Below are positions 276-61,654 of a stretch of 64,000 nt of DNA, piece after piece (positions within the stretch are counted from its first letter, which is position 1; each line of letters begins with the position of its first letter). Location of the stretch: IMG/VR virus record IMGVR_UViG_3300045988_184255. The stretch is one strand, 5' to 3'. The DNA comes from a virus. Below the pieces are notes generated by a model that saw only the letters and a program-made list of their open reading frames with translations, had not been told where the DNA came from and made no database searches. Position numbers and translations under genes: made by a program.

Positions 276-1295
276 ATGGATTTAGATGCTCTGGACACCG
301 CATATGGTGCCGAGCAAATCGACTCCGATTTGCTGTTGACAGACATTCGCACAGGGCTTGAATACACTCTTCGGAACAAGACCTATTGTGGACAAGACCC
401 GTTCGGTAAAAGGCGCTACGGTGCTGATGCTGGGGATATGTGTTATGTCTTCGGTAAGGAGAACAACATCTTAAAGTTGGTCATCAACATTGCGTTGGAT
501 GGCGGCTACGGAATAAACCCGCTGCCTCGTGACGTGGCTGCGGCCATTCTGAGGGACGTAAGCGCTGCAATAAAACCTATTGCAAACAAGCACTCGGCAC
601 GAGCTATCATCAAGAAGCAGCCGTTTTGCTCTGCGGCAATGGGTGCCCGTTCAGGTGCCTTATTCCAATCAGCCGCATTATACGGCTACATCATATCAAC
701 GCCCTACGCTAAGGATACCGGCATTCCTGATGAGAAAATCATCTGGGATGCCAACAGAGACATTTGGTGCAAACGCTGCGGTCAGATTCGAGATACGCGA
801 TTTGCTGCCGGCCAGAAAACTGATTACACCATTCAGCCTTCCGATTTTGGGAAGGTATTCCTTCTCGGAGGCTCCCTGTATCGTATCATCGGAATGGGTG
901 AAAACAGCATGGACGAGGTACTCGTGCAAGGTGTAGACGGTCAAGATAAAGGCGATACCGTGGAGATATCTTTGCCCCTCGTTGAACACGCCCTGTACCT
1001 TGCCGAAATGCAAAATGTCAGTGTCTCAAGGGATGTGGAAACTGCTTTCTATGAGAATAAAAAGCATATCCAAGCCCTGCTGGACCGTGTTGGTGTGGAT
1101 GTGATGTACCGTGAGATGTTTGAGCTTGATGGCTTTACCTACGCATTGGTCGGCATCATACCCACCAAAGTAAAGGATATCTTCGGCGCTGTCCGCGTGG
1201 ACGAATCCGGAGAAACCTTTGATGATGTTCTGTTCTTCTCGTTCGGTGATGTCATTGAGGCGATTCGTTCTGAACGTGACGGAAGTAAAAGCTAA
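276..1295 (+). CDS. Paralog A of a four-member tandem family (339 aa), unknown function; conserved Y-C-x-x-DPFG-x-x-R-[YC]-G, [IV]PxxKIxWDA and G[VI]D[VI]xYREMF motifs
   Basis: ATG 276 preceded by aaagaaaggagaacacc; full-length ORF; motifs shared with the three downstream paralogs. Confidence 0.7.
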   Translation: MDLDALDTAYGAEQIDSDLLLTDIRTGLEYTLRNKTYCGQDPFGKRRYGADAGDMCYVFGKENNILKLVINIALDGGYGINPLPRDVAAAILRDVSAAIKPIANKHSARAIIKKQPFCSAAMGARSGALFQSAALYGYIISTPYAKDTGIPDEKIIWDANRDIWCKRCGQIRDTRFAAGQKTDYTIQPSDFGKVFLLGGSLYRIIGMGENSMDEVLVQGVDGQDKGDTVEISLPLVEHALYLAEMQNVSVSRDVETAFYENKKHIQALLDRVGVDVMYREMFELDGFTYALVGIIPTKVKDIFGAVRVDESGETFDDVLFFSFGDVIEAIRSERDGSKS

Positions 1296-1313
1296 AAAGA
1301 AAGGAGAAACGCT

Positions 1314-2351
1314 ATGAACCTGCACACACTTGACACCACCGTTGGTGCGGGAACAATCACCAGCAAGAATGGGCTCTGTGAGTTCATCAAACAGGTTGTT
1401 GAGTTCAACGTGAAGGGACAGGCCTATTGCTGTAAAGACCCCTTCGGAAAAGAACGCTACGGAAATGACCCCGACCTTCCCCACCCGTGCAAGGTATCGT
1501 ACGAAAAAGCTAATATCACAGAAGTCACACTCAACCTCATCGTAGACGCAGACAATCACAAGTACGTTGAGTCATGTGTTGGTGAGATGCGCGATGATAT
1601 TAAGGCGGCTTTGTGGTATGTGGCGGACACGTATAAGGCTCGGATTTTCGTGCAAAAGCCGTCATTCGGGACAAAGCGCAATGGTGCTGGACGGAGATTC
1701 AGGTTTGCGGTGTTCGGTATCGAGTTCATCCGGACGCCGTACCACAACAACCCCAACGTGCCTGATGAGAAAATCGTCTGGGATGCCCGATGCCTGCGAT
1801 TGCAAGAGGATATTGAAGATGAAAAAGGACGCACCAGCGGCCCTCCTCATATGCCTTTCTATCCGCTAAAATCAACCGATTATGAGCGTGAGTTTCTCTA
1901 TGAGGGTGCCATGTATCGTATTGTTGGCTTTGCGGACGAGTTCAGTTATCTGGACGTGCGACTGCAGCCTGCGGGAAGTACGGGAGACGAAGGCATCATA
2001 GTGGTTCCGTTGGCAAATCTTCGGCGACCTCTTTTTGATGATGACGCCGATATCCCCGCACGAAAACTGAAGGCGGCAAAGGAGGAAGAAGTAGACTTTT
2101 ACGAAGGCAGGGATTGTATCAAAGCCGCCCTCGCTCGTGATGGAGTATCCCTTATGTATCGTGAAATGTTCCAGTACGCCAAGCGCACCTATGCATTAAC
2201 TGCAATTACACCGGACGCGCAAAGTCAATCTTACATCTTCACCGCTACTTGCGTTGAGGACGAAGAAGAAAAAGCTGTCGGTGAAAAGCTCAAGCTCACG
2301 TATCAAGAGGTAATTAAACGAGTTATCGCCGACCGCAGACAGTGGGCTTAA
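1314..2351 (+). CDS. Paralog B of the Cys-x-x-DPFG tandem family (345 aa)
   Basis: RBS aaagaaaggagaaacgct then ATG; shares YCCKDPFGKERYG, VPDEKIVWDA, LMYREMFQ with neighbours. Confidence 0.7.
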   Translation: MNLHTLDTTVGAGTITSKNGLCEFIKQVVEFNVKGQAYCCKDPFGKERYGNDPDLPHPCKVSYEKANITEVTLNLIVDADNHKYVESCVGEMRDDIKAALWYVADTYKARIFVQKPSFGTKRNGAGRRFRFAVFGIEFIRTPYHNNPNVPDEKIVWDARCLRLQEDIEDEKGRTSGPPHMPFYPLKSTDYEREFLYEGAMYRIVGFADEFSYLDVRLQPAGSTGDEGIIVVPLANLRRPLFDDDADIPARKLKAAKEEEVDFYEGRDCIKAALARDGVSLMYREMFQYAKRTYALTAITPDAQSQSYIFTATCVEDEEEKAVGEKLKLTYQEVIKRVIADRRQWA

Positions 2352-2372
2352 AAAGCAAGAAAGGAGAAAGCT

Positions 2373-3467
2373 ATGGATTTGAAAACCATTGACACTGCAG
2401 CCGACATAGGACGTGCAGAGGGTTCATCCCTCTGCACGACACTGTGCAATTACGTCTATGAAGCGCTAAAGGACAAGGATTACTGTTGCAAGGACCCCTT
2501 TGGCGAGGCTCGCTGTGGCAACCGCCGCATCAACATTTGCTACGTATCCGGCGGAGCCGCAACCATCACCCATGTATCGCTTGCAATCTGCCTCAACAAT
2601 ATGCTCTTCGCAGATAATAAGCGTGGGATGAAGCTCTGTTGGACGGATATGTATAATGATGTCATGGCTGCTGCAAAGCAGGCTGCGGCGAAGCACAGTG
2701 CTCGTGTATTTGCACCGAAACAGGTGCTGGGTACTGTACCACGTATTCAGACGGACTGGGCCAGTATGTCGAAGAGTGTCTACTCAAATGAAAAGCCTGA
2801 TTCTTTGCCGCGAGTCGAGAAATCCTATGTTGCAAAGTTTTCCTTTGCCTTCTATCGGACATCCTACTATGCCGACAAGGATATTCCTGATTCCAAAATC
2901 ATCTGGGATGCCTTCTGCCGGCAGAGGGAGGAACACTTCAGGCTTCACAAAGCGGATAAAACTATCATGCAGCCGGTCTATAAACTGAAGTATTCCGATT
3001 ACGGCAGGTTGTTCTCTTATATTGAAACGACCTACTGTATCGAGGGCATCGACAAAAACAGCCTCCCCATCGGAGTATCCCTCCGCCAGATGGACGGCAG
3101 GGAACCCGGCAAGACTGTTGAATGGCCTTTCAACCGCGTGGAAGAGATTCTACGTGATATTGAGGACAGCATGGCTGCTGACCAGCATATTGAGTCAGGC
3201 AAGGAAGAGGAGGCTATGTTCTACAAGAACAAGCAGGTCATCCAACGCCGACTCGACGAGGAGGGCATCGACATCGTCTACCGTGAAATGTTTGACTTCT
3301 GCGGATGCAGTTATGTTCTTACTGCCATCCACCCCAAGGCACGAAAGCACGTCTTCACAGCTATTTGCCTTGGCGACGAGGAGGGGAAGGAGAAGGCTCA
3401 CAAAAAGACCTTTGGCTGGGAGCTGCTCCGCATTATCAGCACACACAGATTTACCGCCACCGCCTGA
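2373..3467 (+). CDS. Paralog C of the Cys-x-x-DPFG tandem family (364 aa)
   Basis: RBS aagaaaggagaaagct then ATG; YCCKDPFGEARCG, IPDSKIIWDA, IVYREMFD. Confidence 0.7.
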   Translation: MDLKTIDTAADIGRAEGSSLCTTLCNYVYEALKDKDYCCKDPFGEARCGNRRINICYVSGGAATITHVSLAICLNNMLFADNKRGMKLCWTDMYNDVMAAAKQAAAKHSARVFAPKQVLGTVPRIQTDWASMSKSVYSNEKPDSLPRVEKSYVAKFSFAFYRTSYYADKDIPDSKIIWDAFCRQREEHFRLHKADKTIMQPVYKLKYSDYGRLFSYIETTYCIEGIDKNSLPIGVSLRQMDGREPGKTVEWPFNRVEEILRDIEDSMAADQHIESGKEEEAMFYKNKQVIQRRLDEEGIDIVYREMFDFCGCSYVLTAIHPKARKHVFTAICLGDEEGKEKAHKKTFGWELLRIISTHRFTATA

Positions 3468-3487
3468 AAGGAGAGACCTTACGACCG

Positions 3488-3517
3488 AAAAGCGCCCCTA
3501 CGGGCGCTTTTCTTTTG
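3488..3517 (+). terminator. Rho-independent terminator closing the paralog A-C operon (aaaagcgcccctacgggcgcttttctttt)
   Basis: GC stem with tacg loop followed by T-run; first element of the repeated cassette. Confidence 0.7.
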
Positions 3518-3527
3518 CCTGAAATCA

Positions 3528-3661
3528 TTGACAAAATATCAAACTGTGGTAGTATAGAATTATAATTACGAAGCTATTTTTATAAAGGAGAGTATCTCCG
3601 TTTCAAGTCACCATACATAAATTCAGACAGTTATCCCAATCTTGGGTGGCTGTCTTTTTTT
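3528..3661 (+). promoter_or_regulatory. Cassette copy 1: promoter TTGACA-N16-TGgTAGTATAGAAT, SD-sequestering hairpin (GGAGA gta TCTCC), and leader hairpin agacagttatcccaa/ttgggtggctgtct plus T7
   Basis: Near-identical sequence occurs six times in the window at operon heads. Confidence 0.75.
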
Positions 3662-3726
3662 ATATATTTTTATACATTTTATATGCCCATAAGTCCTCTT
3701 AATAGGCAGGGAGAAAGGAGAAAAAT

Positions 3727-4758
3727 ATGGATGTGAAATCTCTCAACGGCTCATCCGGAAGATGGAGCGATATTAGTCTGGCCGTACCATTTGATACCGG
3801 CATGGATAGAAAGATTCGTGACAAGCTGATGGATGCCGTGGCGGAAGAACTGAAAGGCAACGCCAACTGCGGCTACGACCCTTTCGGTGCAGAACGCTTC
3901 GGCATCAAGCGCCATAACTGTGGCTACATTCAGAAAAACGGCAGCTACATCGTCGGTATTGGTATCCGCATTGTGATGGATACAAATTACGATTCAGACG
4001 TGTCCCGCGAGCTTATTCGTCAGGATATGCTTCCTGCTGTGCAGCGTGTGGCAGCACAGTTCGGCGTAAGGGCAACCGTTGTGGAACGGAGTTCGCAACT
4101 CTTCGATGCGGAGTTGGAGGACAAAACAATCAGGCGCAATGTTCTCATCAATCTGTTTGAGTGCAGATTTTACCGCACAGTATTCCATGACGAAGCGCAA
4201 GTTCCGACCGAAAAAATCGAGTGGGATGCCTACTGCGCTCACTGTGCGACTTTGCCACGGGACGTTCCGCCAAAACGTTTGCTGAATCCGAACGATTTCG
4301 GCATCACCTTCAAGAAGGGACGATATGAGTACGAACTCGTTGGTGTCTACAAGTACCGTCCGTGGAAGTACGTTGTTGGAAAGCGAATCGGCGAAGTCTC
4401 TACTGGCAAGGAAATCCTCATTCCCCGTGAGGAGATGGAGCAGATTTGCTACGAGCTGCAATGCACAGACAAGGATGCTCTGGCCTTGGAAAATGCCAAG
4501 GACGAAGAAGCCGCATTCTACCGCAACAAAGAGTATATCCGGCATCGACTTGAACGCTTTGGCATCGACATTTCCTACCGTGAGATGTACTCGTATGACG
4601 GACATGACTTTATCATCATCGGCATCCAGCCGAAAGCCCATACCTACCCCTTCGTGGTGCGTTGTGTGGATGAGGACGGTCCGATGTCCGGTAAGGTGAG
4701 CAAGCAGCGGTTATGGAACGTTTTGGACGTGATTGCTGCGGAACGCAGAAAGCAATAG
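3727..4758 (+). CDS. Paralog D of the Cys-x-x-DPFG tandem family (343 aa), first gene after cassette 1
   Basis: RBS gggagaaaggagaaaaat then ATG; NCGYDPFGAERFG, VPTEKIEWDA, ISYREMYS. Confidence 0.7.
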   Translation: MDVKSLNGSSGRWSDISLAVPFDTGMDRKIRDKLMDAVAEELKGNANCGYDPFGAERFGIKRHNCGYIQKNGSYIVGIGIRIVMDTNYDSDVSRELIRQDMLPAVQRVAAQFGVRATVVERSSQLFDAELEDKTIRRNVLINLFECRFYRTVFHDEAQVPTEKIEWDAYCAHCATLPRDVPPKRLLNPNDFGITFKKGRYEYELVGVYKYRPWKYVVGKRIGEVSTGKEILIPREEMEQICYELQCTDKDALALENAKDEEAAFYRNKEYIRHRLERFGIDISYREMYSYDGHDFIIIGIQPKAHTYPFVVRCVDEDGPMSGKVSKQRLWNVLDVIAAERRKQ

Positions 4759-4772
4759 AAAGGAGAATACCC

Positions 4773-5006
4773 ATGCAGACATTCTTAGGCACTGTCAGAG
4801 GTGTTGGTGTGATGCTGTTTGTGGCGTTCCTGCTGGTCGGCTCGTTGTGGCTCGGCCTTCATCACGTCACCTTCATCGGCGAAAAGTTCAAGGGACGTAC
4901 CGGCAGCTTGCTGGCCTACCTTGCACTCATCATCATCTTTGGCGGCGGGCTGGCATTGGCGGTCATTATCTCCATCCAGTGTCCTATCAGCCCGCTTCAT
5001 CAGTAG
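4773..5006 (+). CDS. Small membrane protein (77 aa, two predicted TM helices)
   Basis: RBS agaaaggagaataccc then ATG; hydrophobic stretches VMLFVAFLLVGSLWLGL and LLAYLALIIIFGGGLALAVIISI. Confidence 0.5.
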   Translation: MQTFLGTVRGVGVMLFVAFLLVGSLWLGLHHVTFIGEKFKGRTGSLLAYLALIIIFGGGLALAVIISIQCPISPLHQ

Positions 5007-5059
5007 GAATACATTTTGTTTCCCGTAAGACCTTTAAGGCTGGGAGAAAGGAGAAAATA

Positions 5060-7081
5060 ATGAGCAAAATTCATCTGTCCTTTTTAGCCCCCGGAAAGAA
5101 TTCCGGATACAAAGATACCGTAACGGACATCTACTACAAGGGTATGAATGTGGGGTACATCCTTGAGAACAGAGATACCCTCCGCGATGACACCAAGAAC
5201 TATATGGCATATCGGTTCGCCCATTGCGGCACTGATTATTGGGCTCGCGGCGAGTACATCTATGGCAGCCAATCTTCTACCATCGCAGGGGCAAAGGAGA
5301 AGTTCAGAGCTTGGTTCGAACGCGACGGCGTGGGCACTTACGAGAAGTCCGCGCCCAAGGTCAGACAGCGGCACGCCACCGCACCTGAAACTCTCACCTC
5401 TTACGTCTGCGGTAAGGCACTCCGCATGGTGGACTGGTCTGCCGTGCGCGATGGCGACATTCTGAACCCCATTTGCGGGGACATGAGTGAGCTGCAGCTT
5501 CACGAGTGCTTCCGTCGTTTTGCCGGCTGGTACAGAAACAAGAACAAGGTCTGGCAGCACGAAAGTGCATATTACGGTGAAAAGTATTTGGATACCGTGG
5601 TAGAAGATGTTTGTGTGGCGGAAACGCTGAAGGAAGAAGGCATCCGTGTCGTCTACGACGACTTTGCAAAGTTCAACACACTGAAACCCTATCCCCTCAT
5701 CATGTTCGCCCACACATCGGCGGTCTCCCCTGCTTTCGCTGCACGGTGGATTGGCAAATCTTTGACCATGCTGCGAAAATGCGGCGGTCAGCTTCTCGCC
5801 ATCCTTCCCTACTCCACACTGGCTGCAGACACTTCGCTGTCTTATATGCTGGAAACGAAGAGAATCAATGCCTCTATGTTCTATGTGGAGAAGGAGTTCA
5901 AGCGTGACAGAACGAGACGGACGGCTCCTGAGTGGGTAATTATCCATGTCAACGTCAAGCCGACGAACGCATATAGCCGGAATGAAGCGGATGTATTGAG
6001 CGAGAATCTTACGACTATGCGTGACTACGAGGTTCAGAAGCCGTTCCTTCCCGATTGGAGGAAGAAGTTTCCGCAGGACATCATTGAGGAATTTGAGCTC
6101 AAGGCTCGTATTTGCAACTCCTTCATTGGCTCCTACGAAGAGGTTAAGCCCTTTATAATGAGCGGCTCTGAGTGTTACGACCAGCCCTATGTCAAACTGG
6201 CCGTGGACGACCATCCTTGGAGGGATTCCGGCGTTGAACTTCGAATGGCGTGCTTGGAGAAGATTCGAGCACACTTTTGGAACGTTTTCATGAGCAGAGC
6301 TGCGAACACCGACTGTATGCCTGATGGACTGAAGTCCGATTATGAGCGGCTTCTTACGGAGCTGAAGGACTATGACCTCAACGACTACACGGTGAAGCGG
6401 GTACTGGAGGACATCCACAGGAAGCTGCATAGGGGTTGCACCACTTCCCTGCTGAACCTGTTCGATAGGCTTGGGAGTATGGGAAGTAGGCAACGGTATG
6501 ATGTGTACGATTACGATGTGGACACGCTATCAAGTGAGAACACCCAGAAATATTGCTCTTTCGACAAGAAACAGACCGCTGGGTTCCGTTTGGTGTTCCC
6601 GAACCTCTCTATGTACTACTACGTCTTCGACTGCTACAGAAATGCTTTCAATCAGGGTAAAGCCGCATATGTGGTGCATGATATGGAAAGCGCTCTGCAT
6701 CTTCTCAACGGTGGCAAGAATATACCTAACGCTATCGACCCGATGACTGCTGTCAACGATAATGTCACAAACGGGAAAAGCGCCGGTAAAAGTATCGCAT
6801 TCACGTTCTTTACCGGTTCTTTCTATAAGAAAGGCATTCTGAAGTTGAAGTTCAAGGACTCCGCCAAACTGCTCATCGACCGGCTGAACATTTTCGTCGG
6901 TATGAAGCGCGGCTGGTTGCCTGCTGACTACGGCACCAAGCCGTATGATGCTTTGAGTAACGCTGAAAAGAAAGTCATTGACAGCTTCCAAAGCCGTGAG
7001 GAGTACGATGCAGTCGTTGCAAATCCTGATGAGTACATCATCAAGGATTTCGACATTGAGAAGCTGTTTGAAGCGCGTTAA
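5060..7081 (+). CDS. Large protein of unknown function (673 aa)
   Basis: ATG 5060 preceded by an orphan copy of the cassette 3-prime motif (ttcccgtaagacctttaaggctgggagaaaggagaaaataATG); long ORF. Confidence 0.65.
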   Translation: MSKIHLSFLAPGKNSGYKDTVTDIYYKGMNVGYILENRDTLRDDTKNYMAYRFAHCGTDYWARGEYIYGSQSSTIAGAKEKFRAWFERDGVGTYEKSAPKVRQRHATAPETLTSYVCGKALRMVDWSAVRDGDILNPICGDMSELQLHECFRRFAGWYRNKNKVWQHESAYYGEKYLDTVVEDVCVAETLKEEGIRVVYDDFAKFNTLKPYPLIMFAHTSAVSPAFAARWIGKSLTMLRKCGGQLLAILPYSTLAADTSLSYMLETKRINASMFYVEKEFKRDRTRRTAPEWVIIHVNVKPTNAYSRNEADVLSENLTTMRDYEVQKPFLPDWRKKFPQDIIEEFELKARICNSFIGSYEEVKPFIMSGSECYDQPYVKLAVDDHPWRDSGVELRMACLEKIRAHFWNVFMSRAANTDCMPDGLKSDYERLLTELKDYDLNDYTVKRVLEDIHRKLHRGCTTSLLNLFDRLGSMGSRQRYDVYDYDVDTLSSENTQKYCSFDKKQTAGFRLVFPNLSMYYYVFDCYRNAFNQGKAAYVVHDMESALHLLNGGKNIPNAIDPMTAVNDNVTNGKSAGKSIAFTFFTGSFYKKGILKLKFKDSAKLLIDRLNIFVGMKRGWLPADYGTKPYDALSNAEKKVIDSFQSREEYDAVVANPDEYIIKDFDIEKLFEAR

Positions 7082-7106
7082 TTGTGAAAGGAGAATCATC
7101 TACTGC

Positions 7107-7139
7107 GAAAAGCGTCCCTGACGGGGCGCTTTTCTTTTC
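7107..7139 (+). terminator. Rho-independent terminator (gaaaagcgtccctgacggggcgcttttcttttc)
   Basis: GC hairpin plus T-run immediately 3-prime of the 5060..7081 stop. Confidence 0.7.
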
Positions 7140-7150
7140 GACTAAAACGA

Positions 7151-7286
7151 TTGACAAAATATCAAACTGTGGTAGTATAGAATTATAATTACGAAGCTAT
7201 TTTTATAAAGGAGATTATCTCCATTTTCCAAGTCACCATACGTAAATTCAGACAGTTATCCCAATCTTGGGGTAGCTGTCTTTTTT
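7151..7286 (+). promoter_or_regulatory. Cassette copy 2 (promoter plus leader hairpins)
   Basis: Same TTGACAaaatatcaaactgtggtagtatagaat ... agacagttatcccaatcttggggtagctgtcttttttat as copy 1. Confidence 0.75.
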
Positions 7287-7352
7287 ATATATTTTCATAC
7301 ATTTTGAGTTCCCGTAAGTCCTTATTACAGGCAGGGAGAAAGGAGAAAAACA

Positions 7353-7937
7353 ATGAGTGTCATCAACACCCGACTCGCCTATCTCTATCGTGATGCGGAC
7401 AACTACAAAGTTCGTCACGAGGTCGTTTTCGCCGGCCAGATGTCGGAGGAGGAAAAGATGCGTATTATCGCCAGTCTCGATGACGGCGAATACTTCATCC
7501 CCGGCCCTCTCGGTCTGAACGACGAGCGTTTCGGCAGTGAGACGGAGGCCGACCATCCCTTCTTTGAGTTCTGCTACTTCGAGGAAACCACGGATAAGCC
7601 GACGACCGATATCTCCATCGCCGAAATCGTCAAACGGTTCGAGGACAATGCCCATCTCTGGAAGGATTACGAGACTTCCTTGGAAGACGTTGAACTCAAC
7701 GAGGTAAACGACATCAAGATGCCCGCACCTGACACTGAGGAAGACCTCTCCCCCCGTGCCAAGGCTCTCCTGTTTGAGACGCTGGAGCTGTTCCGGAAGG
7801 AAATCAGCCCCAAGTTCTCCGACTGGAAGGATGCCGACGATTGGCTGTTCAGCAGCCTGAGTATCACCAAGGACGAGCTGCAGGATATCTACGCCGACCA
7901 TGACGTGATGGTCTATGGCGAGTCTGCGGCGGACTGA
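7353..7937 (+). CDS. Strongly acidic protein (194 aa, D/E-rich); speculative DNA-mimic or anti-restriction-like candidate
   Basis: RBS gggagaaaggagaaaaaca then ATG; high Asp/Glu content; first gene after the cassette. Confidence 0.6.
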   Translation: MSVINTRLAYLYRDADNYKVRHEVVFAGQMSEEEKMRIIASLDDGEYFIPGPLGLNDERFGSETEADHPFFEFCYFEETTDKPTTDISIAEIVKRFEDNAHLWKDYETSLEDVELNEVNDIKMPAPDTEEDLSPRAKALLFETLELFRKEISPKFSDWKDADDWLFSSLSITKDELQDIYADHDVMVYGESAAD

Positions 7938-12332: not shown

Positions 12333-12395
12333 ATATATCTACATACATTTTTGTGTTCCCGTAAGTCCTTCAAGGCTGGGAGAAAGGAGAAACAA

Positions 12396-17489: not shown

Positions 17490-17553
17490 ATATATTTTCA
17501 TACATTTGTGTTCCCATAAGTCCTTATCATAGGCAGGGAGAAAGGAGAAATTC

Positions 17554-23180: not shown

Positions 23181-23267
23181 CTCAATTTTTGCTGAATTTG
23201 AAAGAAAGAAAACGCTCGAAAATGGCTTGGTTATGCGGTTTTCATGGACTATGTTTGTTCCTGTTCT

Positions 23268-23379
23268 CCCGACTAAAATCTCAAATTTTTATTCGGTTTT
23301 TCCCGACTAAAGTTTAGTTCTTATAACTCTGATTTCCCGACTAAAATTGCAATTTGAAAATTCGGAAATCCCGACTAAA
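23268..23379 (+). repeat. Four direct iterons CCCGACTAAA (starts 23268, 23302, 23336, 23370) at exact 34 bp periodicity; ttcgg motif upstream of copies 2 and 4 (tattcgg / aattcgg)
   Basis: Found by direct counting in the noncoding gap between the terminator and cassette 5. Confidence 0.7.
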
Positions 23380-23427
23380 ATCAAAAAACAGTGCAAATGT
23401 AATAAACGCAATTTGGTGCCTAAAATG

Positions 23428-23563
23428 ATTGACAAAATATCAAACTGTGGTAGTATAGAATTATAATTACGAAGCTATTTTTATAAAGGAGATTATCTCC
23501 GTTTTCCAAGTCACCACATAAATTCAGACAGTTATCCCAATCTTGGGGTAGCTGTCTTTTTTT
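23428..23563 (+). promoter_or_regulatory. Cassette copy 5 (promoter plus leader hairpins; lacks the ttcccgtaagtcct pre-RBS motif)
   Basis: Repeat of the cassette. Confidence 0.75.
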
Positions 23564-23607
23564 ATATATTTATTGCATTTTTCGACAACAAAGAAAGGAG
23601 AAACACC

Positions 23608-23790
23608 ATGAAGTACAAGAAGCTCACCAAACATGAGCGAGACACGCACCCGTCCATTCACTGTACGGGCAGCGTGCGCGGCATGAAGGAACGTGGGTTG
23701 TGGGACAAGGATGCCGAGTGTGTTCGCTGCGGCAACCACATCTACAACCTGTCCGTTACCATCCCGCCCTACCCTGCTGATGGCTGCTGA
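23608..23790 (+). CDS. Small Cys-containing protein (60 aa)
   Basis: RBS aaagaaaggagaaacacc then ATG. Confidence 0.45.
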   Translation: MKYKKLTKHERDTHPSIHCTGSVRGMKERGLWDKDAECVRCGNHIYNLSVTIPPYPADGC

Positions 23791-24129: not shown

Positions 24130-24335
24130 GTAAGCATCGTTGGACTATCGAGGAACTGAAGAACGTCAATGACGCTCAGTTCGCTATGGCGATTCTGATG
24201 GAACGCCGCAGTGAGTTATCGAATCCCTACACCCCGTTCGCACAGCGCCTTACCAGCGTCATCAATACGCTGACGGACATGGCTGTGGATGGCGGGCTGA
24301 CAGACGAAGAAAGGAGTAAGAACAATGGCCGCTGA
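24126..24335 (+). CDS. Small protein (69 aa) whose C-terminal 34 aa tail is duplicated at the end of the next gene
   Basis: GTG start overlapping the upstream stop; the tail YTPFAQRLTSVINTLTDMAVDGGLTDEERSKNNG recurs at 24670..24777. Confidence 0.45.
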   Translation: MSKHRWTIEELKNVNDAQFAMAILMERRSELSNPYTPFAQRLTSVINTLTDMAVDGGLTDEERSKNNGR

Positions 24336-24777
24336 AATGAGACTTTACCGCGTAACGGTTATCGGCAGCAATGCCGAAAGGAAGCGCGGAAAAGTGGTGG
24401 AAGAGGTCACAGTCAAGGTCGGAACCAAGTGGCTGACGGACGATAACGGTCGGCGTTACTACAAGGTGCCGCTTGAGGACGCAAACCGAAACCTCTACTT
24501 CCAGCTCAACACCATGTACTGCATGGACTACCGGCTGTATCAGACAGAGCAGGCCGCCAAGGATTACCTTCGGCAAGCGGAACTGCGTGTGGCGCTTTGC
24601 AAGGCGGTGAGCAATTTCGGCTTCAACGCTCCCCTGCCTGTGCTGGAGAAGGTCATGGATACGCTGAAATACACCCCGTTCGCACAGCGTCTCACCAGCG
24701 TCTTCAATACGCTGACGGACATGGCTGTGGATGGCGGGTTGACGGACGAAGAAAGGAGCAAGAACAATGGCTGTTGA
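24325..24777 (+). CDS. Protein (150 aa), first copy of a tandem duplicate pair
   Basis: ATG embedded in the upstream gene tail (aacaATGgccgctgaaatgag); N-terminal MAAEMRLYRVTVIGSNAERKRGKVVEEVTVKVGTKWLTD. Confidence 0.55.
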   Translation: MAAEMRLYRVTVIGSNAERKRGKVVEEVTVKVGTKWLTDDNGRRYYKVPLEDANRNLYFQLNTMYCMDYRLYQTEQAAKDYLRQAELRVALCKAVSNFGFNAPLPVLEKVMDTLKYTPFAQRLTSVFNTLTDMAVDGGLTDEERSKNNGC

Positions 24778-25135
24778 GATGAGACTCTACCGCGTGCCTA
24801 TTATCGGTAGTAATGCCGAACGGCGGCACGGAAAGGTGGTGGATGAGGTCACGGTCAAGGTTGGAACCAAGTGGCTGACAGACAATAGAGACTGTCGATA
24901 CTACAAGGCTCCTTCCGAAGATGCGAACAGAAATCCCTATTTCCAGCAGAACTCCATGTACTGGAGTACAGATTACCGGCTGTATCAGACGGAACAGGCT
25001 GCCAAGGACTATCACCATCAGGCGGAATTGCTCATAGCTCTTCGCAGAGCCGTTGGCGACTTCGGCTTCAACGCCCCGTTGACCGTGCTGGAGAAGGTCA
25101 TGGACACTCTCAAGGAAGGCGGATGCTTGAAATGA
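24767..25135 (+). CDS. Protein (122 aa), second copy of the tandem duplicate (MAVEMRLYRVPIIGSNAERRHGKVVDEVTVKVGTKWLTD)
   Basis: Same junction sequence as the upstream copy; about 70 percent identical. Confidence 0.55.
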   Translation: MAVEMRLYRVPIIGSNAERRHGKVVDEVTVKVGTKWLTDNRDCRYYKAPSEDANRNPYFQQNSMYWSTDYRLYQTEQAAKDYHHQAELLIALRRAVGDFGFNAPLTVLEKVMDTLKEGGCLK

Positions 25136-29575: not shown

Positions 29576-29642
29576 CTATATATAACATTTTTTGGATTCC
29601 CGTAAGTCCTTATTACAGGCTGGGAGAAAGGAGAAAAAGACC

Positions 29643-55960: not shown

Positions 55961-58900
55961 TTACTCGGCGAACTGCTCCTTCTTGCGACGGAACATGAAC
56001 ATCGCCGTAGCGCAGCAAGCGATGGCACTGAACGTACCCAGCATAGCCCACAGGCCGATGCCTTCATCGCCGGTCTGGACGCTATCGCGGAAGTACACCG
56101 TCTGAGCGCCGTCCATCAGGTCGTTGTGCGTTGCAATGACATTGCCGGCTTCGGCCTTGCCTTCGTACAGTGTCTCGAACACAACGATGGCGTGGTCCTT
56201 CAGCTTGGATGCGTCGAACTTGAACGTAACGTTCACAGCGCCATTGGCGGACTTGGGAGTGAAGGTGGTGGAGGCGGTAATCAGGTTGCCGTTGTTGTCC
56301 TTCAGGGCAACGCCGGTATCCTTATCCATCAGCGTACCAACCAGCACGTAGGTCTTACCCACGGTCAGGCCGGTGTAGTTGACAGTATCCACGATTTTCA
56401 CGTTCTTGCCAGCCACGGAGTTCTTCTTGTCCTTGCCGTCGAAGGTGGCAGTCGTAGAGATGCTCGGACCGGAATAGGTCGGGATGCGCTTGATGGTCAC
56501 AGTCTGGTCAACATCGTTGATGTCGGTGTGCGTAGCGACCGTAGTGCCATTGCGGGTCAGAGTCTCGAACACGACCAGCGTCTTGCCGCCCAGAATGGAC
56601 GCATCGAACACGAAGCTCACATCCACAGTACCGTCAGCAGACTTAGCCTCGAACTCGGTAGTAGCGGTGATTTCCTTGTTGTTGCGGCCCAGAACGGGCT
56701 TGCCGGTGGCCTTATCCATCAGAGTACCTGTCACGGTATACTTGTTACCAGCAATCAGGCCCTTATAGGACACGGTATCAATCAGTTCAACCTTGCTGTA
56801 GGCCCAGAATTCCTTCTTGCCATCAGCAGCGTTCTTGGCAGAGGTCTTGATTTCGGGATTATTGACGGTCACGGTCTGGTCAGCATCATTGATGTCGGCG
56901 TGGACAGCGATTTCAATATCCTTGTACTGCAGGGACTCGAACACGACGATGGACTCGCCACGCAGCAGAGAAGCGTCGAGGACGAAGATGACGTCCACGG
57001 TGCCCTTGGAAGCCTCGGCGGTGAAGGTGGTGGAAGCGGTAATTTCCTTACCGTCCTTATCCTTCAGAGGCTCGTTGGTGGCCTTGTTCATCAGCTTACC
57101 GGAGACAGTGTACTTCTCACCGACAATCAGGCCGGAGTAAGACACGGTATCCTTGATTTCAGCGCGAGCTTCGGGGTCAAGAGTCTTGCCGTTGGTGGCG
57201 TTGTTCACGGCCTTGGTGCCGATTTCGGGAACGCCGATGGTAACGGTCTGGCCCTCATCGTTGATGTCCTCATGGCTCACAAACACGGGCTTATCGGAGT
57301 CACCGGGAACAATCTCGTTGCCCAGATACACACGCTCGAATACCACCAGAGACTTGCCGGCCAGCTCAGTGGCATTGAAGACGAACTTCACGTCCACAGT
57401 GTCAGTAGCCTGCTCAGGAGTGAACACCTTGTAGGCGGTAATGGGCTCGCCCTTGGCATCGGTGACGGGCTTACCGGTTGCCTTATCCATCAGAGTACCG
57501 ATAGCAATGAACTCCTTGCCCACAGGCATATTCTCATAGGAGATGGTATCAACCAGAATCACATCGTCCAGAGGCATAAATTCCTTGCCGCCGGCGGAGT
57601 TCTTCGCGGTAGTACCAATCTTGGGATTCAGGACGGTCACGGTCTGGTCAACATCGTTGATGTCGGCATGAGTAGCAACGACCTTCTCACCACGCTTCAG
57701 GTCCTCGAAAGCAACGAGGGACTCGCCGCCCAGCAGAGAAGCATCGAAGGTGAACTCCAGCTCCACATAGCCGGTAAAGTCAGCCTCGGCCTTGAAGGTC
57801 TTGGAAGCAGTGATGCGGTTGCCCTGAGCATCCAGCAGAGGCTCACCGGTGGACTTGACCACCAGATAGCCCTCGACCGTATAGGTCTTGTTGGGGATGA
57901 CATCAGTGCATTCCACCTTATCAATGATAGTGACGGAGGTGGAAGGAATGATTTCCTTGTTGCCGTCCTTATCGGTGGCAGTGGTCTTGACCTTGGGGGT
58001 CACGGCCTCATCCTCAGCGACGATGCTCACGGTCACAAGACCGGTCTCAGCGTCCAGAGAGATGGTGTCGGGAGTGACGTCGAAGCGGATGGGAGTGTCC
58101 ATCAGCTCGTAGCCCTTGGGGGCCTTGGTCTCGACCAGATGATAGCCCTCACCATAAGGCAGGACCAGAGGAGTCACAAAGTAACCCTCGTCATTGGTCA
58201 CGAATGTATCAATATACTTGACAGTGGGATAAGTGACCTTCTGAGACACCTTGTTGCCATCGGGGTCATAAATCTGGAACTCAGCGCCGCCCCAAGGAAT
58301 GACTTCGCCATCGAACTCATCGACCTTCACAACGCGCAGATACGCAGTGATGGGGCCGTTGTTGACAGCCAAATCATGATGGTCACGGTCAACTTCGCCA
58401 ACCAGAACGGTGAACTCAGGCGCGAGCCCCGCACCCTTATCCCCGGCCTTGGTCTGATGCACCACATAGGTGCCGTAGGGCAGCTCGATGGACTTGCCGC
58501 TGTAACCCAAGTCGTTGGTCGTCAGGATACCGCGCTCGTCATCCTTAGCGTTCTCGTAAGAGCCGGCGGACTGCAGCCAATACTTGAACTCTGCACCGCC
58601 CTCGAACTTAGCGGGACCGGAGGTGCCGTCGGAGATGAACTTGGTGATGGCGAAGGTGCCGCGATTGATGACCTCGACAGAGGTAATCTGGGGAGCAACG
58701 TTGTGTTCGATACGGTAGTTCTCCGGCTCGGCGCCGACGCGATACACGCCCTCATCAATCTGATAGCCAGTGGGCGCCTTGATTTCACGGATGGTGTAAT
58801 CATAGCCGCAGATGTACTCGTCAGTGGTGAACTTGCCATCGCTGCCGATAACGTACTCCTTCACCAGCTCGTCACCCTTATACAGACCGTACACAGCACC

Positions 58901-61654
58901 CTCAAAGACACCATCGCCGCGAGGGATGTTGCCAGTCTCAGCGTCCGTCTTCTCCACAGTGACCTTCCACTTCTTCAGTACGTTGGTCACAGCGGTGTCG
59001 GTAACTTTCTGGAACTCCACAGCGAGACCTGTCTGCACGGCAGGAATAACATACTTCACCGCCGTATCGACTTCCTCCAGCGTGTAGTTATTGCCAATCA
59101 GGACATCCTTGAAGATGGCAACGCCGTCAGCGTTGGTGGTAGCGGTCATATCCACAGCATCGCCGGAAATGGCCGTGCCGTACAGACGGAAGGTAATACC
59201 CTCGACCAGACCATCCTCGGAGGTCTTGGTCACGCGCAGGTCGCCGCGCTTGAGCTTGTTGTAGACTTCCACATCAGTGGTGTTGCCCAGCGTCACCTTG
59301 ACGCCAGCCTTTACCTCAGGAACAACGTACTTCGCAGCGGTGTTGACTTCTTCAACGCTGTAATTGTTGCCAATCAGAACGTTATTGAAAGTAGCGATAC
59401 CGTTTGCGTCAGTAACAGCGGTCATATCAACGGTCTCGCCGTTGATGGCCGTACCGTACAGCCGGAACGTGATACCGGCGGTCTTGCCGTCCTCAGAGGT
59501 CTTCTTGACCTCAACGGCACCGCGAGCCAGCTTGTTCTCAAACTGCAGGTTTGTCGTCTTGTTCAGAGAAATGGTTACGCCCTCCTGAATGGCAGGAACA
59601 ACGTATCTCTCAGCGGTGTTGATTTCCTGAACAGTGTAGTTGTTACCGATAAGGATATCCTTGAACAGAATCACACCGTTCTCATCGGTGGTAGCTGTCT
59701 CGTTGACAGCAGCACCGGAGATGGAAGTACCGGACAGGCGGAAAGTCATACCGGACACGAAGCCATCCTCAGAAGTCTTCGTGATTTTCAGATTGCCGCG
59801 AGCCAGCTTGTTCTCGAACTTGGCTTCAGTGGCGGCGTTGTACTCGACAACAACACCAGCCTGAACTTCAGGAACCACATACTTTGCAGCGGTATTGATT
59901 TCCTCAAGTTTGTAGTTTTTACCAATAGGAACGTTGTTGAAAGTGGCAACGCCGTTCGCATCGGTAGTAGCGGTCATGTTCACGGACGTACCGGCGGCGG
60001 AAGTGCCGGACAGCCGGAAGGTATGACCGGCAACCTGACCATCCTCAGACATCTTTGTAATCTTGACAGTGCCCTTCTTCAGAACGTTGTTGAAGCTCGC
60101 TGTCTTGACGTCTCCGATTGCGATGGTCACAGTCTGAGATGTCGTCGGAATGTAGTTTTCCGACGTCTTCTCTGTCACAGTGTACGTACCGGGCTGCAGG
60201 TCAGCAATGGTGATTTTGCCGTTGGCAGCAGTCGTCACGGTTTTATTGAAACCGTTGGGACCGGTCACGGTGAAGCTCACGCCGCTGACCTTGCCATCCT
60301 CAGAGGTCTTGGCAATGGTCAGGTCGCCGGTGGTCTTCGTGACCTTGGCGCGGACGTAGGCAGTAACGGGGTCAGGTGTACCGTTAAGGGCAACGCAGTC
60401 CTGCTTGCTGCCACCTGCGACGAGAAGGTAAGCATTGACGCTGTCGGGGTCAATCACATTGCCCTCGGAAGCATACGATACAATACCGTTCAGCATATTC
60501 TTTGCAGCTTCAGGGGTGGCAGTAATTGTCAGGCTGTTTCCACTCTGGAAGGTGCTCACACCGGGCAGGCCAAACTCGAAGTCGTCAAAATTTCTCAGGA
60601 CTCTATTTGTGTCGGTTCTTGTCAACGACCAAGAAGTGCCGTCCCAAGCCAACTCGAAATCATTATATGTAGAGCGAGGATTAGGTACAGCAAAACTCGG
60701 TATAACGGTCTGCTGGTTAATCTTGTCCCAAATATAATCATGTGCCGCCTTGATAGGCTCTGCAACAGAGGCATCATAGGAATGGCCGGGACCCACAAAC
60801 AGGTCACTCAGGTCTCTGTAGCCACCAACGATTTCCCAGATAACTTCCTGTGTGGCACACCACGCATAAGTGCCGTTGCCAGCATACCAGAGCAATGTCG
60901 AGTCGTCTACCCCACCGTAGCCATAGGCAAGCGCAAGGCGAACCCGCTGGTCTCCCCAATACGCGCTGGCGTCAACGGAGGTGCCGGAGCCGGGTGCGCC
61001 CTTGTGAGGTTCGATACAATAAGCGGGCTGGCCGTTGAAATATTTTACAACAGCGCTTGTATACGGCTCAAATGCTGACAGCCACGTACTGTTGTAACTC
61101 ATATCGTCACCGGTCGTAATGGTTCCGGAGGAACGAGCGGGTGCTCTCATGGCACTGATAGCTCTGGGTGCGTTCTGCGCTGACCCGTAAAGGACGGAAA
61201 CGCTCACGGGAGTGTCCCCACCCGCATAAGGGTCGGAAACTTCTTCGCTTACAGAAACCTTATCAGATTCCTTCTTTCCGTCCTCAGACTTTCCAGCGTT
61301 AGACTGAACAGGTTGCTCATCCTTAGAAGAGTTATCCTTGGAAACGTCCTTTTTTTCTTCGTCTCCATTGCTTGCGACATCCTTATCAGCGTCGCTCTTA
61401 CCCTCAACGGCAGGAGCCTCGGCATCCTTCTTACCATCATCGGGAGTCTTCGTGTCTTCTGTGGCGTTATAGACCAAATCGCCATCGCCAGAATCAGTCT
61501 TCCCAACCTCTACAGGGTCAGAAACACTTTCGACAACGACCGAATTGCTGCCGCCATCCGCATCCGCTGCATACACGGACGTCGGGAGCAATCCAACCAC
61601 CATCACCAGCGTCAGCAACATAGCTACTACGCCACGCAGCTTCTTGTGTTTCAT
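55961..61654 (-). CDS. Giant cell-wall-anchored surface adhesin (1,897 aa): signal peptide, acidic region, about 5-6 Cna-B/SpaA-type Ig-like repeats, about 6 VaFE-type repeats, C-terminal sorting-signal-like tail
   Basis: N-terminal MKHKKLRGVVAMLLTLVMVVGLLPTSVYA; repeats TFRLSGTS..G..V..TATTD.NGVA.F..V.IG.NY...E; repeats ..VVFE.L.....A.H.DINDVDQTVTV; C-terminal VQTGDEG plus hydrophobic stretch plus RRKKEQ. Confidence 0.8.
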   Translation of the reverse strand: MKHKKLRGVVAMLLTLVMVVGLLPTSVYAADADGGSNSVVVESVSDPVEVGKTDSGDGDLVYNATEDTKTPDDGKKDAEAPAVEGKSDADKDVASNGDEEKKDVSKDNSSKDEQPVQSNAGKSEDGKKESDKVSVSEEVSDPYAGGDTPVSVSVLYGSAQNAPRAISAMRAPARSSGTITTGDDMSYNSTWLSAFEPYTSAVVKYFNGQPAYCIEPHKGAPGSGTSVDASAYWGDQRVRLALAYGYGGVDDSTLLWYAGNGTYAWCATQEVIWEIVGGYRDLSDLFVGPGHSYDASVAEPIKAAHDYIWDKINQQTVIPSFAVPNPRSTYNDFELAWDGTSWSLTRTDTNRVLRNFDDFEFGLPGVSTFQSGNSLTITATPEAAKNMLNGIVSYASEGNVIDPDSVNAYLLVAGGSKQDCVALNGTPDPVTAYVRAKVTKTTGDLTIAKTSEDGKVSGVSFTVTGPNGFNKTVTTAANGKITIADLQPGTYTVTEKTSENYIPTTSQTVTIAIGDVKTASFNNVLKKGTVKITKMSEDGQVAGHTFRLSGTSAAGTSVNMTATTDANGVATFNNVPIGKNYKLEEINTAAKYVVPEVQAGVVVEYNAATEAKFENKLARGNLKITKTSEDGFVSGMTFRLSGTSISGAAVNETATTDENGVILFKDILIGNNYTVQEINTAERYVVPAIQEGVTISLNKTTNLQFENKLARGAVEVKKTSEDGKTAGITFRLYGTAINGETVDMTAVTDANGIATFNNVLIGNNYSVEEVNTAAKYVVPEVKAGVKVTLGNTTDVEVYNKLKRGDLRVTKTSEDGLVEGITFRLYGTAISGDAVDMTATTNADGVAIFKDVLIGNNYTLEEVDTAVKYVIPAVQTGLAVEFQKVTDTAVTNVLKKWKVTVEKTDAETGNIPRGDGVFEGAVYGLYKGDELVKEYVIGSDGKFTTDEYICGYDYTIREIKAPTGYQIDEGVYRVGAEPENYRIEHNVAPQITSVEVINRGTFAITKFISDGTSGPAKFEGGAEFKYWLQSAGSYENAKDDERGILTTNDLGYSGKSIELPYGTYVVHQTKAGDKGAGLAPEFTVLVGEVDRDHHDLAVNNGPITAYLRVVKVDEFDGEVIPWGGAEFQIYDPDGNKVSQKVTYPTVKYIDTFVTNDEGYFVTPLVLPYGEGYHLVETKAPKGYELMDTPIRFDVTPDTISLDAETGLVTVSIVAEDEAVTPKVKTTATDKDGNKEIIPSTSVTIIDKVECTDVIPNKTYTVEGYLVVKSTGEPLLDAQGNRITASKTFKAEADFTGYVELEFTFDASLLGGESLVAFEDLKRGEKVVATHADINDVDQTVTVLNPKIGTTAKNSAGGKEFMPLDDVILVDTISYENMPVGKEFIAIGTLMDKATGKPVTDAKGEPITAYKVFTPEQATDTVDVKFVFNATELAGKSLVVFERVYLGNEIVPGDSDKPVFVSHEDINDEGQTVTIGVPEIGTKAVNNATNGKTLDPEARAEIKDTVSYSGLIVGEKYTVSGKLMNKATNEPLKDKDGKEITASTTFTAEASKGTVDVIFVLDASLLRGESIVVFESLQYKDIEIAVHADINDADQTVTVNNPEIKTSAKNAADGKKEFWAYSKVELIDTVSYKGLIAGNKYTVTGTLMDKATGKPVLGRNNKEITATTEFEAKSADGTVDVSFVFDASILGGKTLVVFETLTRNGTTVATHTDINDVDQTVTIKRIPTYSGPSISTTATFDGKDKKNSVAGKNVKIVDTVNYTGLTVGKTYVLVGTLMDKDTGVALKDNNGNLITASTTFTPKSANGAVNVTFKFDASKLKDHAIVVFETLYEGKAEAGNVIATHNDLMDGAQTVYFRDSVQTGDEGIGLWAMLGTFSAIACCATAMFMFRRKKEQFAE
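56100..58250 (-). repeat. Tandem in-frame DNA repeats (about 375 nt period) encoding VaFE-type domains
   Basis: Recurring cggtctggtcaacatcgttgatgtcggtgtg-like blocks at 56498, 56870, 57247, 57636. Confidence 0.6.
58960..60360 (-). repeat. Tandem in-frame repeats (about 285 nt period) encoding Cna-B-type domains
   Basis: Recurring gttgccaatcaggacatccttgaagatggcaacgcc-like blocks near 59080, 59370, 59640, 59920. Confidence 0.6.

Follow-up and report, generated by a model that had tools for sequence, protein, structure and literature searches.

A conserved R-UAAG hairpin adjoining the Shine-Dalgarno site of mobile-element genes as a candidate translation initiation element

Operons in the window, as we call the whole 64,000-nt stretch of DNA analysed here (IMG/VR virus record IMGVR_UViG_3300045988_184255), are headed by repeated regulatory cassettes, and the 3' module that closes these cassettes also occurs by itself inside an operon, at 5009..5059 (+). 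This locus raises the question whether the orphan module is a working unit, and if so of what kind, or what remains of a cassette that has been lost. A sequence-only reading had named a translation enhancer, an RNase processing site, a protein-binding site and the scar of a deleted cassette as candidates.

The orphan module and the cassettes of the window

In our reading, the window comes from a large uncultured mobile element of gut Clostridia, either phage or plasmid. Its relatives in IMG/VR number ~25 contigs of 31-190 kb, most of them supplied by one metagenome, and more distant homologues of its AAA protein were found in Oscillospiraceae, Lachnospiraceae and Eubacterium assemblies and on a contig with T4SS-pilin and primase genes. 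Positions 3400-7400 gave no megablast match to the INPHARED phages or the PLSDB plasmids, and most of the window proteins had no match in Pfam or PHROG. Those recognisable were a DUF4942 protein, an AAA_5-like ATPase followed by a VWA/CobT-like protein, Fic, HD, zeta-toxin-like and SPFH proteins, an NS-type endonuclease, a topoisomerase, YdjM and a 1,897-aa repeat protein, the ORF of which (55961-61654, -) has internal repeats with a period of ~372-399 bp at 56165-57835 and of 276 bp at 59014-60058. Besides, the element carries a tRNA-Ser (anticodon TGA) at 41314-41401 (-) and a ~440 bp tandem duplication (83% and 77% identity) across two neighbouring small genes at 24228-25113 (+).

The sequence reported to precede the 673-aa gene was found exactly at 5009-5059 and comprises a U-rich flank (CAUUUUG), a hairpin, a Shine-Dalgarno (SD) sequence and a spacer leading to the ATG at 5060. 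The gene behind it (5060..7081, +) encodes a DUF4942 domain at residues 400-618. On the 5' side lies a 77-aa hydrophobic ORF (4773..5006, +), also called as a 77-aa gene in the relatives L079 and L080, whose stop codon (5004-5006) stands 2 nt 5' of 5009 and 15 nt 5' of the CCC of the hairpin; the orphan occupies the 53-nt spacer between this ORF and the DUF4942 gene. The operon is driven by a cassette at 3528..3655 (+), with a TTGACA-16-TAGTAT promoter with TG (3528-3555) and a leader terminator (3625-3655). Between 3655 and 5060 on the + strand, neither a sigma-70-like promoter nor an intrinsic terminator was found, and none of the cassette parts (TTGACA-16-TAGTAT promoter, conserved leader, leader terminator) occurs in the ~200 nt 5' of 5009, a region that is coding. 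The description of the orphan as a cassette 3' module without promoter, terminator or leader therefore stands. The region at 276-4758 (+) holds four paralogous genes in series (339-364 aa; repeat families D14 and D15), with a faint Y4mA_C match in the relatives, the last of which is cassette-led.

Six full cassettes were delineated in the window by alignment of upstream regions, ending at the genes 3727, 7353, 12396, 17554, 23608 and 29643. In each, the preceding operon's terminator comes before a TTGACA-16-TAGTAT promoter that has a TG extension, and this is followed by a conserved leader carrying a small GGAGAUUAUCUCC hairpin and by a strong leader terminator. The 3' module closes five of the six, at 3684..3720 (before gene 3727), 7309..7345 (before gene 7353), 12356..12389 (before the GTG at 12396, with the short loop of the orphan), 17511..17547 (before gene 17554) and 29597..29633 (before the AAA-type gene at 29643), all on the + strand. 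The cassette at 23408..23607 (+), before gene 23608, has promoter, leader and leader terminator and no module. The earlier count of cassettes is accordingly right for the five that bear the module and has to be raised to six for full cassettes.

The motif itself is far more frequent in the window than chance would have it, as CCCRTAAGWCCT has six exact + strand matches against 0.71 expected (seven with one mismatch allowed, a number reached by 0 of 100 shuffles) and GGGAGAAAGGAG has six, also on the + strand, against 0.32 expected. A covariance model of the motif recovered exactly six window copies at 54-61 bits, the next best match scoring <12 bits, and in all six an ATG or GTG follows 6-9 nt 3' of the module SD. 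No module is present in the remaining window spacers of 54-133 nt, and three cassette-led genes are without it. As AGAAAGGAG is the general ribosome-binding site of this genome (families D9-D12), the part specific to the module is CCC..GGG and its interior. Since the module occurs without a cassette and the cassette at 23408-23607 without a module, the two are separable in both directions, and the repeated cassettes of this genome are built from at least two independent functional modules.

The gene led by the module-less cassette (23608-23790, +) encodes a 60-aa Cys-rich, zinc-ribbon-like protein and has no pre-SD hairpin in either cassette clade (orthologues in L004 and L031). Just 5' of this cassette, at 23267-23380 (+), four copies of TCCCGACTAAAR follow one another with a period of exactly 34 bp (0.46 expected by chance), and the array looks like an iteron or centromere-like one.

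In the minimum-energy fold of the full leader, UCUCCAUUUUCC of the leader (7218-7229) pairs with GGGAGAAAGGAGA, and the SD is hidden in a long-range helix around the leader terminator (z = -2.9). The leader segment UCUCCRUUUUCC (7218-7229) is complementary at 11 of 12 positions to GGGAGAAAGGAGA (7334-7346), and the same positions are found in the other cassettes; a competitor for its UCUCC is the leader's own AAAGGAGA, and such anti-SD complementarity would fit any ribosome-binding site of this genome. The hairpin as a trans-pairing target of the terminated leader RNA was rejected, as only this generic complementarity was found and as the orphans and the lineages outside the family have no leader. 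That every operon is preceded by a promoter and then a leader terminator suggests read-through under regulation, comparable to processive antitermination, systems of which occur in Gram-positive conjugative elements (PMC8191782). In L091, a distant relative with an AAA protein 38% identical and a contig with TrbC-like pilin, ERF and primase, a TTGACA-17-TAGTATAAT promoter and then two leader terminators precede the AAA gene (4452-4830), with no R-UAAG hairpin. The layout of promoter and leader terminator is thus older and wider than the module.

Anatomy and covariation of the hairpin

Hairpin and SD of the orphan together (5020-5053, +) match the covariance model. The hairpin core (5022..5044, +), with a fold of -7.4 kcal/mol for 5020-5047 and covariation in the relatives, has an outer stem of 5022-5024 paired with 5042-5044, extended by the pair U5021-A5045, and an inner stem of CCU (5031-5033) paired with AGG (5037-5039) and closed by the loop UUA (5034-5036). 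Between the two stems lie the internal loop G-UAAG-A on the 5' strand (5025-5030) and the bulge C-U on the 3' strand (5040-5041). The maximal SD AGAAAGGAG (5045..5053, +) is flush with the hairpin, its start codon being at 5060.

Against six copies in the window, the ~25 related contigs gave 172 copies of the motif, with 44 distinct sequences. Their consensus runs from the first strand of the outer stem through R-UAAG, 1-3 nt, CCN, a variable middle segment, NGG and C-N to the second strand of the outer stem, followed after 0-2 nt by AGAAAGGAG. The usual form is UCCC-R-UAAG-N-CCU-(3 or 6 nt)-AGG-C-N-GGGA, in which the last A of the stem is also the first base of the SD. Among the 172 copies UAAG, the closing C-G, CC..GG and the 3' C are invariant, and any base is tolerated at R, in the 5' bulge, in the loop and at the 3' N. 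The pairing of two variable positions (W-W) was considered and rejected, as all combinations occur. Likewise, a reading of UAA as the stop codon of an upstream ORF was rejected: there is no in-frame start, the frame of the upstream gene skips the UAA, and upstream indels shift the frame from copy to copy.

The stems change in sequence and stay paired. The third pair of the inner stem, U-A in the usual form, is G-C in L079 (CCG..CGG for CCU..AGG) and C-G in the L001 type, and in the outer stem the pairs 2 and 3 change from C-G to G-C and A-U. In L089, a relative of 67% identity, the outer stem is GCCC/GGGC. A second type of copy has GAGC/GCUC for CCC/GGG as its outer stem, together with a 3-nt bulge and a long apical helix; its 21 copies (L018 11896-11943, L001 4639-4686 and 19 more) stand before one gene of the related genomes, the product of which starts MERAINREQ or MEKAINREQ, and in one clade the inner stem is CCC/GGG as well. 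The string of this second type, GAGCATAAG, is absent from the window. Where 12-17 nt replace the 3-6-nt loop, all nine distinct inserts extend the same helix, and among L093, L109, L105 and L108 the extensions differ by flips of G-C to C-G and by C-G to U-A changes, with one G-U pair. In an alignment of 14 sequences, the covariation score was 0.113 against 0.047 in shuffles and was reached by one of 500 shuffles, and 92% of the cells were paired as against at most 61% with slid partners. The changes that keep the stems paired, the inserts that extend the helix and the covariation tests show that the hairpin is real at the RNA level.

By itself the hairpin has -6 to -7 kcal/mol, which is marginal (z -0.7 to -1.0), and the tests usual for a structured cis-regulatory RNA gave compensatory pair changes but no stability beyond that of shuffled sequence (z -1.0 to +0.84; regions of 61-69 nt no better than shuffles). 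In the predicted hairpin state the SD is single-stranded, and the hairpin always lies on the sense strand with an SD adjoining it.

The earlier claim that a pre-RBS motif forms a unit of its own is thus retained and extended, as the motif is now a base-paired hairpin with covariation and its invariant part is the internal loop of R-UAAG and C-N, which points to a specific partner.

Retention before DUF4942 genes and spread to unrelated elements

All orthologues of the 673-aa gene (76-97% identity) are preceded by the orphan with every invariant position intact and in the short CCUUNAAGG form, and in the related contigs the copies before these orthologues are the only ones without a leader terminator in the 60 nt upstream. 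Four upstream contexts were distinguished, namely the window type, L069, L079 and a second cassette clade with an unrelated upstream gene, in which the 138 nt upstream of the orphan are 0.44 identical, about the random level, and homology starts at CAUUUUG, the very 5' edge of the module. Such an edge would be expected of a recombination junction, and together with the module's usual travelling with the cassette it speaks for a module that has no function of its own and is a recombination scar, a hitch-hiking cassette end, or an operator or recombination site at the level of DNA. In comparison with the nearer orthologues, module and third-codon (synonymous) positions of the adjacent gene are moreover both ~0.90 identical, which leaves that comparison alone indecisive. 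Against the more distant orthologues, however, the module is 0.87 identical and the third-codon positions of identical residues 0.59 and 0.71. The compensatory changes that keep the helix, with the G-U pair in an extension, the constant sense orientation flush with an SD, and the presence in unrelated elements without a cassette also contradict a module without function, and the variable lengths of loop and bulge are unlike a rigid DNA operator or promoter. We consider this explanation largely refuted and extremely improbable.

When the patterns were allowed a long middle segment, the scans found this core again in two lineages outside the family, each with a single copy and neither with the cassette. 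Three metagenome contigs of 67% GC (L105, L107, L108) are Thermaceae plasmid-like, with a toprim protein 46-48% identical to Thermus plasmid proteins. Here the core stands before an SD, and the hairpin precedes a 27-28-aa hydrophobic peptide ORF (MINIRRVLTLSWLGTMLLVLLALLITR) and then an intrinsic terminator (L108 8564-8693; L105 797-930, -); this arrangement recalls type I toxins or small membrane peptides. The other lineage (L093, L106, L109) is a phage-like contig of 50% GC with RecT and a weak small-terminase match, on which the core, again immediately before an SD, sits between a DUF7178 gene and a DUF7666/Imm5-like gene. In the flanks compared, no protein is common to the window and either of these lineages, or to the two lineages themselves. 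The search patterns fixed the flanking bases, and identity there is partly a matter of ascertainment in the outside copies; those within the family may be homogenised by recombination.

Strict and extended-loop patterns gave zero matches in 185,579 species-representative genomes, and relaxed IMG/VR scans, with the SD relaxed or the loop lengthened, gave L093 and no further lineage, from which we take the motif to be rare and apparently confined to mobile elements. The contigs L092, L095, L096, L102, L114, L115, L118 and L124 from the relaxed scans were set aside as chance-like, L096 (25 bits) and L092 (16.5 bits) being possible distant members. Short blastn queries with the motif and with the Thermaceae-type copy had only chance matches in INPHARED and PLSDB, of which MT836781 was rejected as lying in coding sequence.

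As the orphan is kept in four upstream contexts with its invariant positions intact, and as the same core occurs in unrelated lineages, it is not the scar of a deleted cassette. The motif is found beyond the window copies in ~25 related contigs and two outside lineages, and with cassette-free unrelated elements added to the module without cassette and the cassette without module, the claim of a separable unit has become stronger. We regard the orphan as very probably a selected RNA hairpin that acts in cis on the downstream gene.

The surroundings of the hairpin bear on one way in which it could act. An RNase Y-like cut in the U-rich stretch 5' of the hairpin would leave a new 5' end that hairpin and SD-bound ribosome shield from the 5'-exonuclease RNase J, and the level of the downstream mRNA would be uncoupled from the leader or the upstream ORF, a situation known from the operons cggR-gapA and glnRA. 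Within the family CAUUUUG and an AU-rich single strand always lie 5' of the hairpin. RNase Y has a weak preference for G at -1, A at +1, U at -2/-3, AU-rich surroundings and downstream structure (PMC11780869), and some copies read UUUG|A, which would fit this preference and a stabilising 5' stem-loop (PMC11780869). Behind the second ORF of its operon, where the orphan lies, a difference in mRNA stability would also be plausible. But the copies of the Thermaceae-like lineage and of the RecT phage have no U-rich flank, the stem is weak, and to block a 5' end a hairpin can do without an invariant loop or fixed closing pairs. A site of RNA processing or stability is, in our judgement of these sequence features, an unlikely explanation.

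A candidate translation initiation element among known RNA systems

The position of the module and its invariant part suggest another way. As stems and apical loop are free to change and the asymmetric internal loop is invariant, the hairpin would have a specific partner rather than act as a generic structure, and its constant adjacency to a 9-nt SD points to action at translation initiation. AGAAAGGAG is complementary to the 3' tail of 16S rRNA, CCUCCUUUCU. We propose a cis-acting structured RNA of the 5' untranslated region, in which a two-helix hairpin would have stems free to change so long as they stay paired, and the fixed parts would be the asymmetric loop (R-U-A-A-G and 1-3 nt on the 5' strand, opposite C-N on the 3' strand) and the flanking C-G pairs. 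Joined to the 9-nt SD AGAAAGGAG with a gap of 0-2 nt, the hairpin would present the SD unpaired and act on the translation initiation of the next gene. The loop would dock to a partner that very different bacteria have in common, the likeliest being the 30S subunit in the area of mRNA exit and platform, and the outcome would be recruitment or standby of the ribosome and initiation without translational coupling. This would explain why the module stands at the first gene after leaders of ~150 nt that contain a terminator, and at a single internal gene, that for DUF4942, 53 nt from the upstream ORF.

Ribosome docking or enhancement is thus our preferred mechanism, held tentatively. The same loop in Clostridia and Thermaceae without a common element-encoded protein favours a universal partner. 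On the other side, the hairpin is thermodynamically marginal, a generic enhancer or standby site needs no invariant internal loop, and module-less spacers of 54-133 nt and module-less cassette-led genes exist. The gap of 0-2 nt before the SD weakens a strict coaxial-stacking model, and no verifiable complementarity of the motif to rRNA was found.

Stems and an apical loop that vary freely around an invariant loop are also the classic signature of a protein-binding hairpin. The module could be the operator of an RNA-binding regulator, encoded by the element or the host, which would recognise R-UAAG and C-N and, as the hairpin adjoins the SD, repress or activate the translation of the module-bearing genes together, in the manner of T4 RegA, Mu Com or the leaders of ribosomal-protein genes. 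The ~15 operon-first genes with module per genome are regulon-like, and the resemblance to the hairpin-plus-SD leaders of the L31 type, weak and below the Rfam threshold, fits such an operator too. The 60-aa Cys-rich gene is cassette-led and without the module in both clades; that its product is a possible regulator is only a guess, and the protein has no match in Pfam or PHROG, Com included. No RNA-binding domain was found among the ~50 window proteins scanned, the three lineages with the motif have no common protein in the flanks compared, and each of the two outside lineages has but one copy. We consider a regulator's operator rather unlikely.

A core that is identical across phyla, with helices of variable length, recalls the aptamers of riboswitches as well. 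A small molecule or ion reporting the state of the host could bind in the internal loop and lock the register in which the SD is free. The minimum-energy folds of the copies alternate between the hairpin register and one that pairs UUCCC and UCCUU with GGAGAA and AGGGA, and UCUCCRUUUUCC is a further possible pairing partner of the SD in full leaders. However, the alternative register is conserved neither in the second type of copy nor upon change of the 5' bulge base, and the element is very small (~30 nt). The coherent gene association expected of a riboswitch is absent, as the downstream genes are unrelated in function (DUF4942, AAA ATPase, Imm5-like, 27-aa hydrophobic peptide and many ORFans). 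An aptamer of this kind appears very unlikely.

Returning to translation initiation, we think it possible, if doubtful, that the R-UAAG hairpin represents an undescribed class of RNA that directly binds a universal component of the cell, the 30S subunit or a host-state small molecule, and controls translation initiation in mobile elements of distant phyla; its hosts may include Clostridia, Deinococcus-Thermus and at least one other group. It would then be a portable docking or sensing module that phages and plasmids fix to a maximal Shine-Dalgarno site. If ribosome recruitment or host sensing holds true, it would provide a compact (~30-nt), host-independent part for translation control and a new handle on operon expression in large uncultured mobile elements of the gut. 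As the loop nucleotides are identical in three lineages, simple mutants of stem and loop could put this to the test, and on a conservative reading too the hairpin is a clean new candidate for RNA-family curation.

The module matches no described RNA family. Rfam 15 gave only the tRNA in the whole window, and at an E-value limit of 10 the families that the orphan region and the L093 copy matched best were Mu-gpT-DE (12.8 bits, threshold 49) and L31-Firmicutes (12.7 bits, threshold 33.3). These resemblances to Mu-gpT-DE, the L31 leaders and freshwater-2, all of them other motifs of a hairpin followed by an SD, are below threshold and at the level of chance. INPHARED and PLSDB were likewise without a match, and the motif string returned nothing relevant in the literature searched.

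Several known kinds of element were compared and rejected. The module is not an intrinsic terminator, as AGAAAGGAG and no U-tract follows the hairpin and the terminator scan did not list it. In a kink-turn, where a 3-nt bulge precedes tandem sheared G-A and A-G pairs, one would look for a conserved GA, which neither strand has (C-N on the 3' strand, R-UAAG-N on the 5' strand). STAB-SD, an SD-like sequence that no start codon follows, was dismissed as the module SD has a start codon 6-9 nt downstream in all six window copies, and an ssRNAP-type or other fixed-spacing promoter as the length of the middle segment ranges between 3 and 17 nt. RAT, small ribozyme cores and CRISPR-repeat mimicry do not fit the invariant positions. 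The 11-nt receptor of GNRA tetraloops, an adenosine-platform loop, is CCUAAG...UAUGG. The C-R-UAAG of the module resembles its CCUAAG, and both are asymmetric internal loops between short G-C helices, a likeness that serves as a lead only; as an 11-nt tetraloop receptor the module was rejected, its 3' strand being C-N-G with a free N and not UAUGG.

Among regulatory RNAs, the preQ1-I and THF-II/folE aptamers are like the module tiny, with an invariant loop and variable helices, situated at the SD and found across phyla; the module differs in that it has no match in Rfam, is not associated with a coherent set of genes and lacks a conserved expression platform. The 5' stabilisers and RNase Y-processed stem-loops of Firmicutes, such as those of cggR-gapA, glnRA and hbs and the SP82 polypurine stabiliser (PMC11780869, PMC5737220), share with it a strong polypurine SD after a stem-loop, an AU-rich stretch upstream and a place inside operons. 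Their hairpins are stable and not sequence-specific, whereas that of the module is weak with an invariant internal loop. The L31 leaders (RF03156, RF03128) are short bulged hairpins that end a few nt before AAGGAG, as in the module, and are presumed translational, but the score is 12-13 bits against a threshold of ~33, the conserved nucleotides differ, and the L31 leaders precede a ribosomal-protein gene whereas the module precedes many unrelated genes of mobile elements.

Phages offer the remaining parallels. PeSLs are mobile cassettes of T4-type phages that consist of a terminator stem-loop and an early promoter and are not known to have a conserved pre-SD hairpin. The full cassettes of the window are like them repeated, recombining regulatory units ahead of gene blocks, and the orphan, with neither terminator nor promoter, is unlike them. 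Phage translational operators such as the T4 RegA targets and Mu Com-mom give coordinated post-transcriptional control, and the RegA targets and the Com-mom hairpin are, like the module, RNA sites that recur at or near the ribosome-binding sites of several phage genes. The RegA sites are unstructured and AU-rich, and Com binds beside a hairpin that occludes the SD; where the Com-mom hairpin hides the SD, the module leaves it free.
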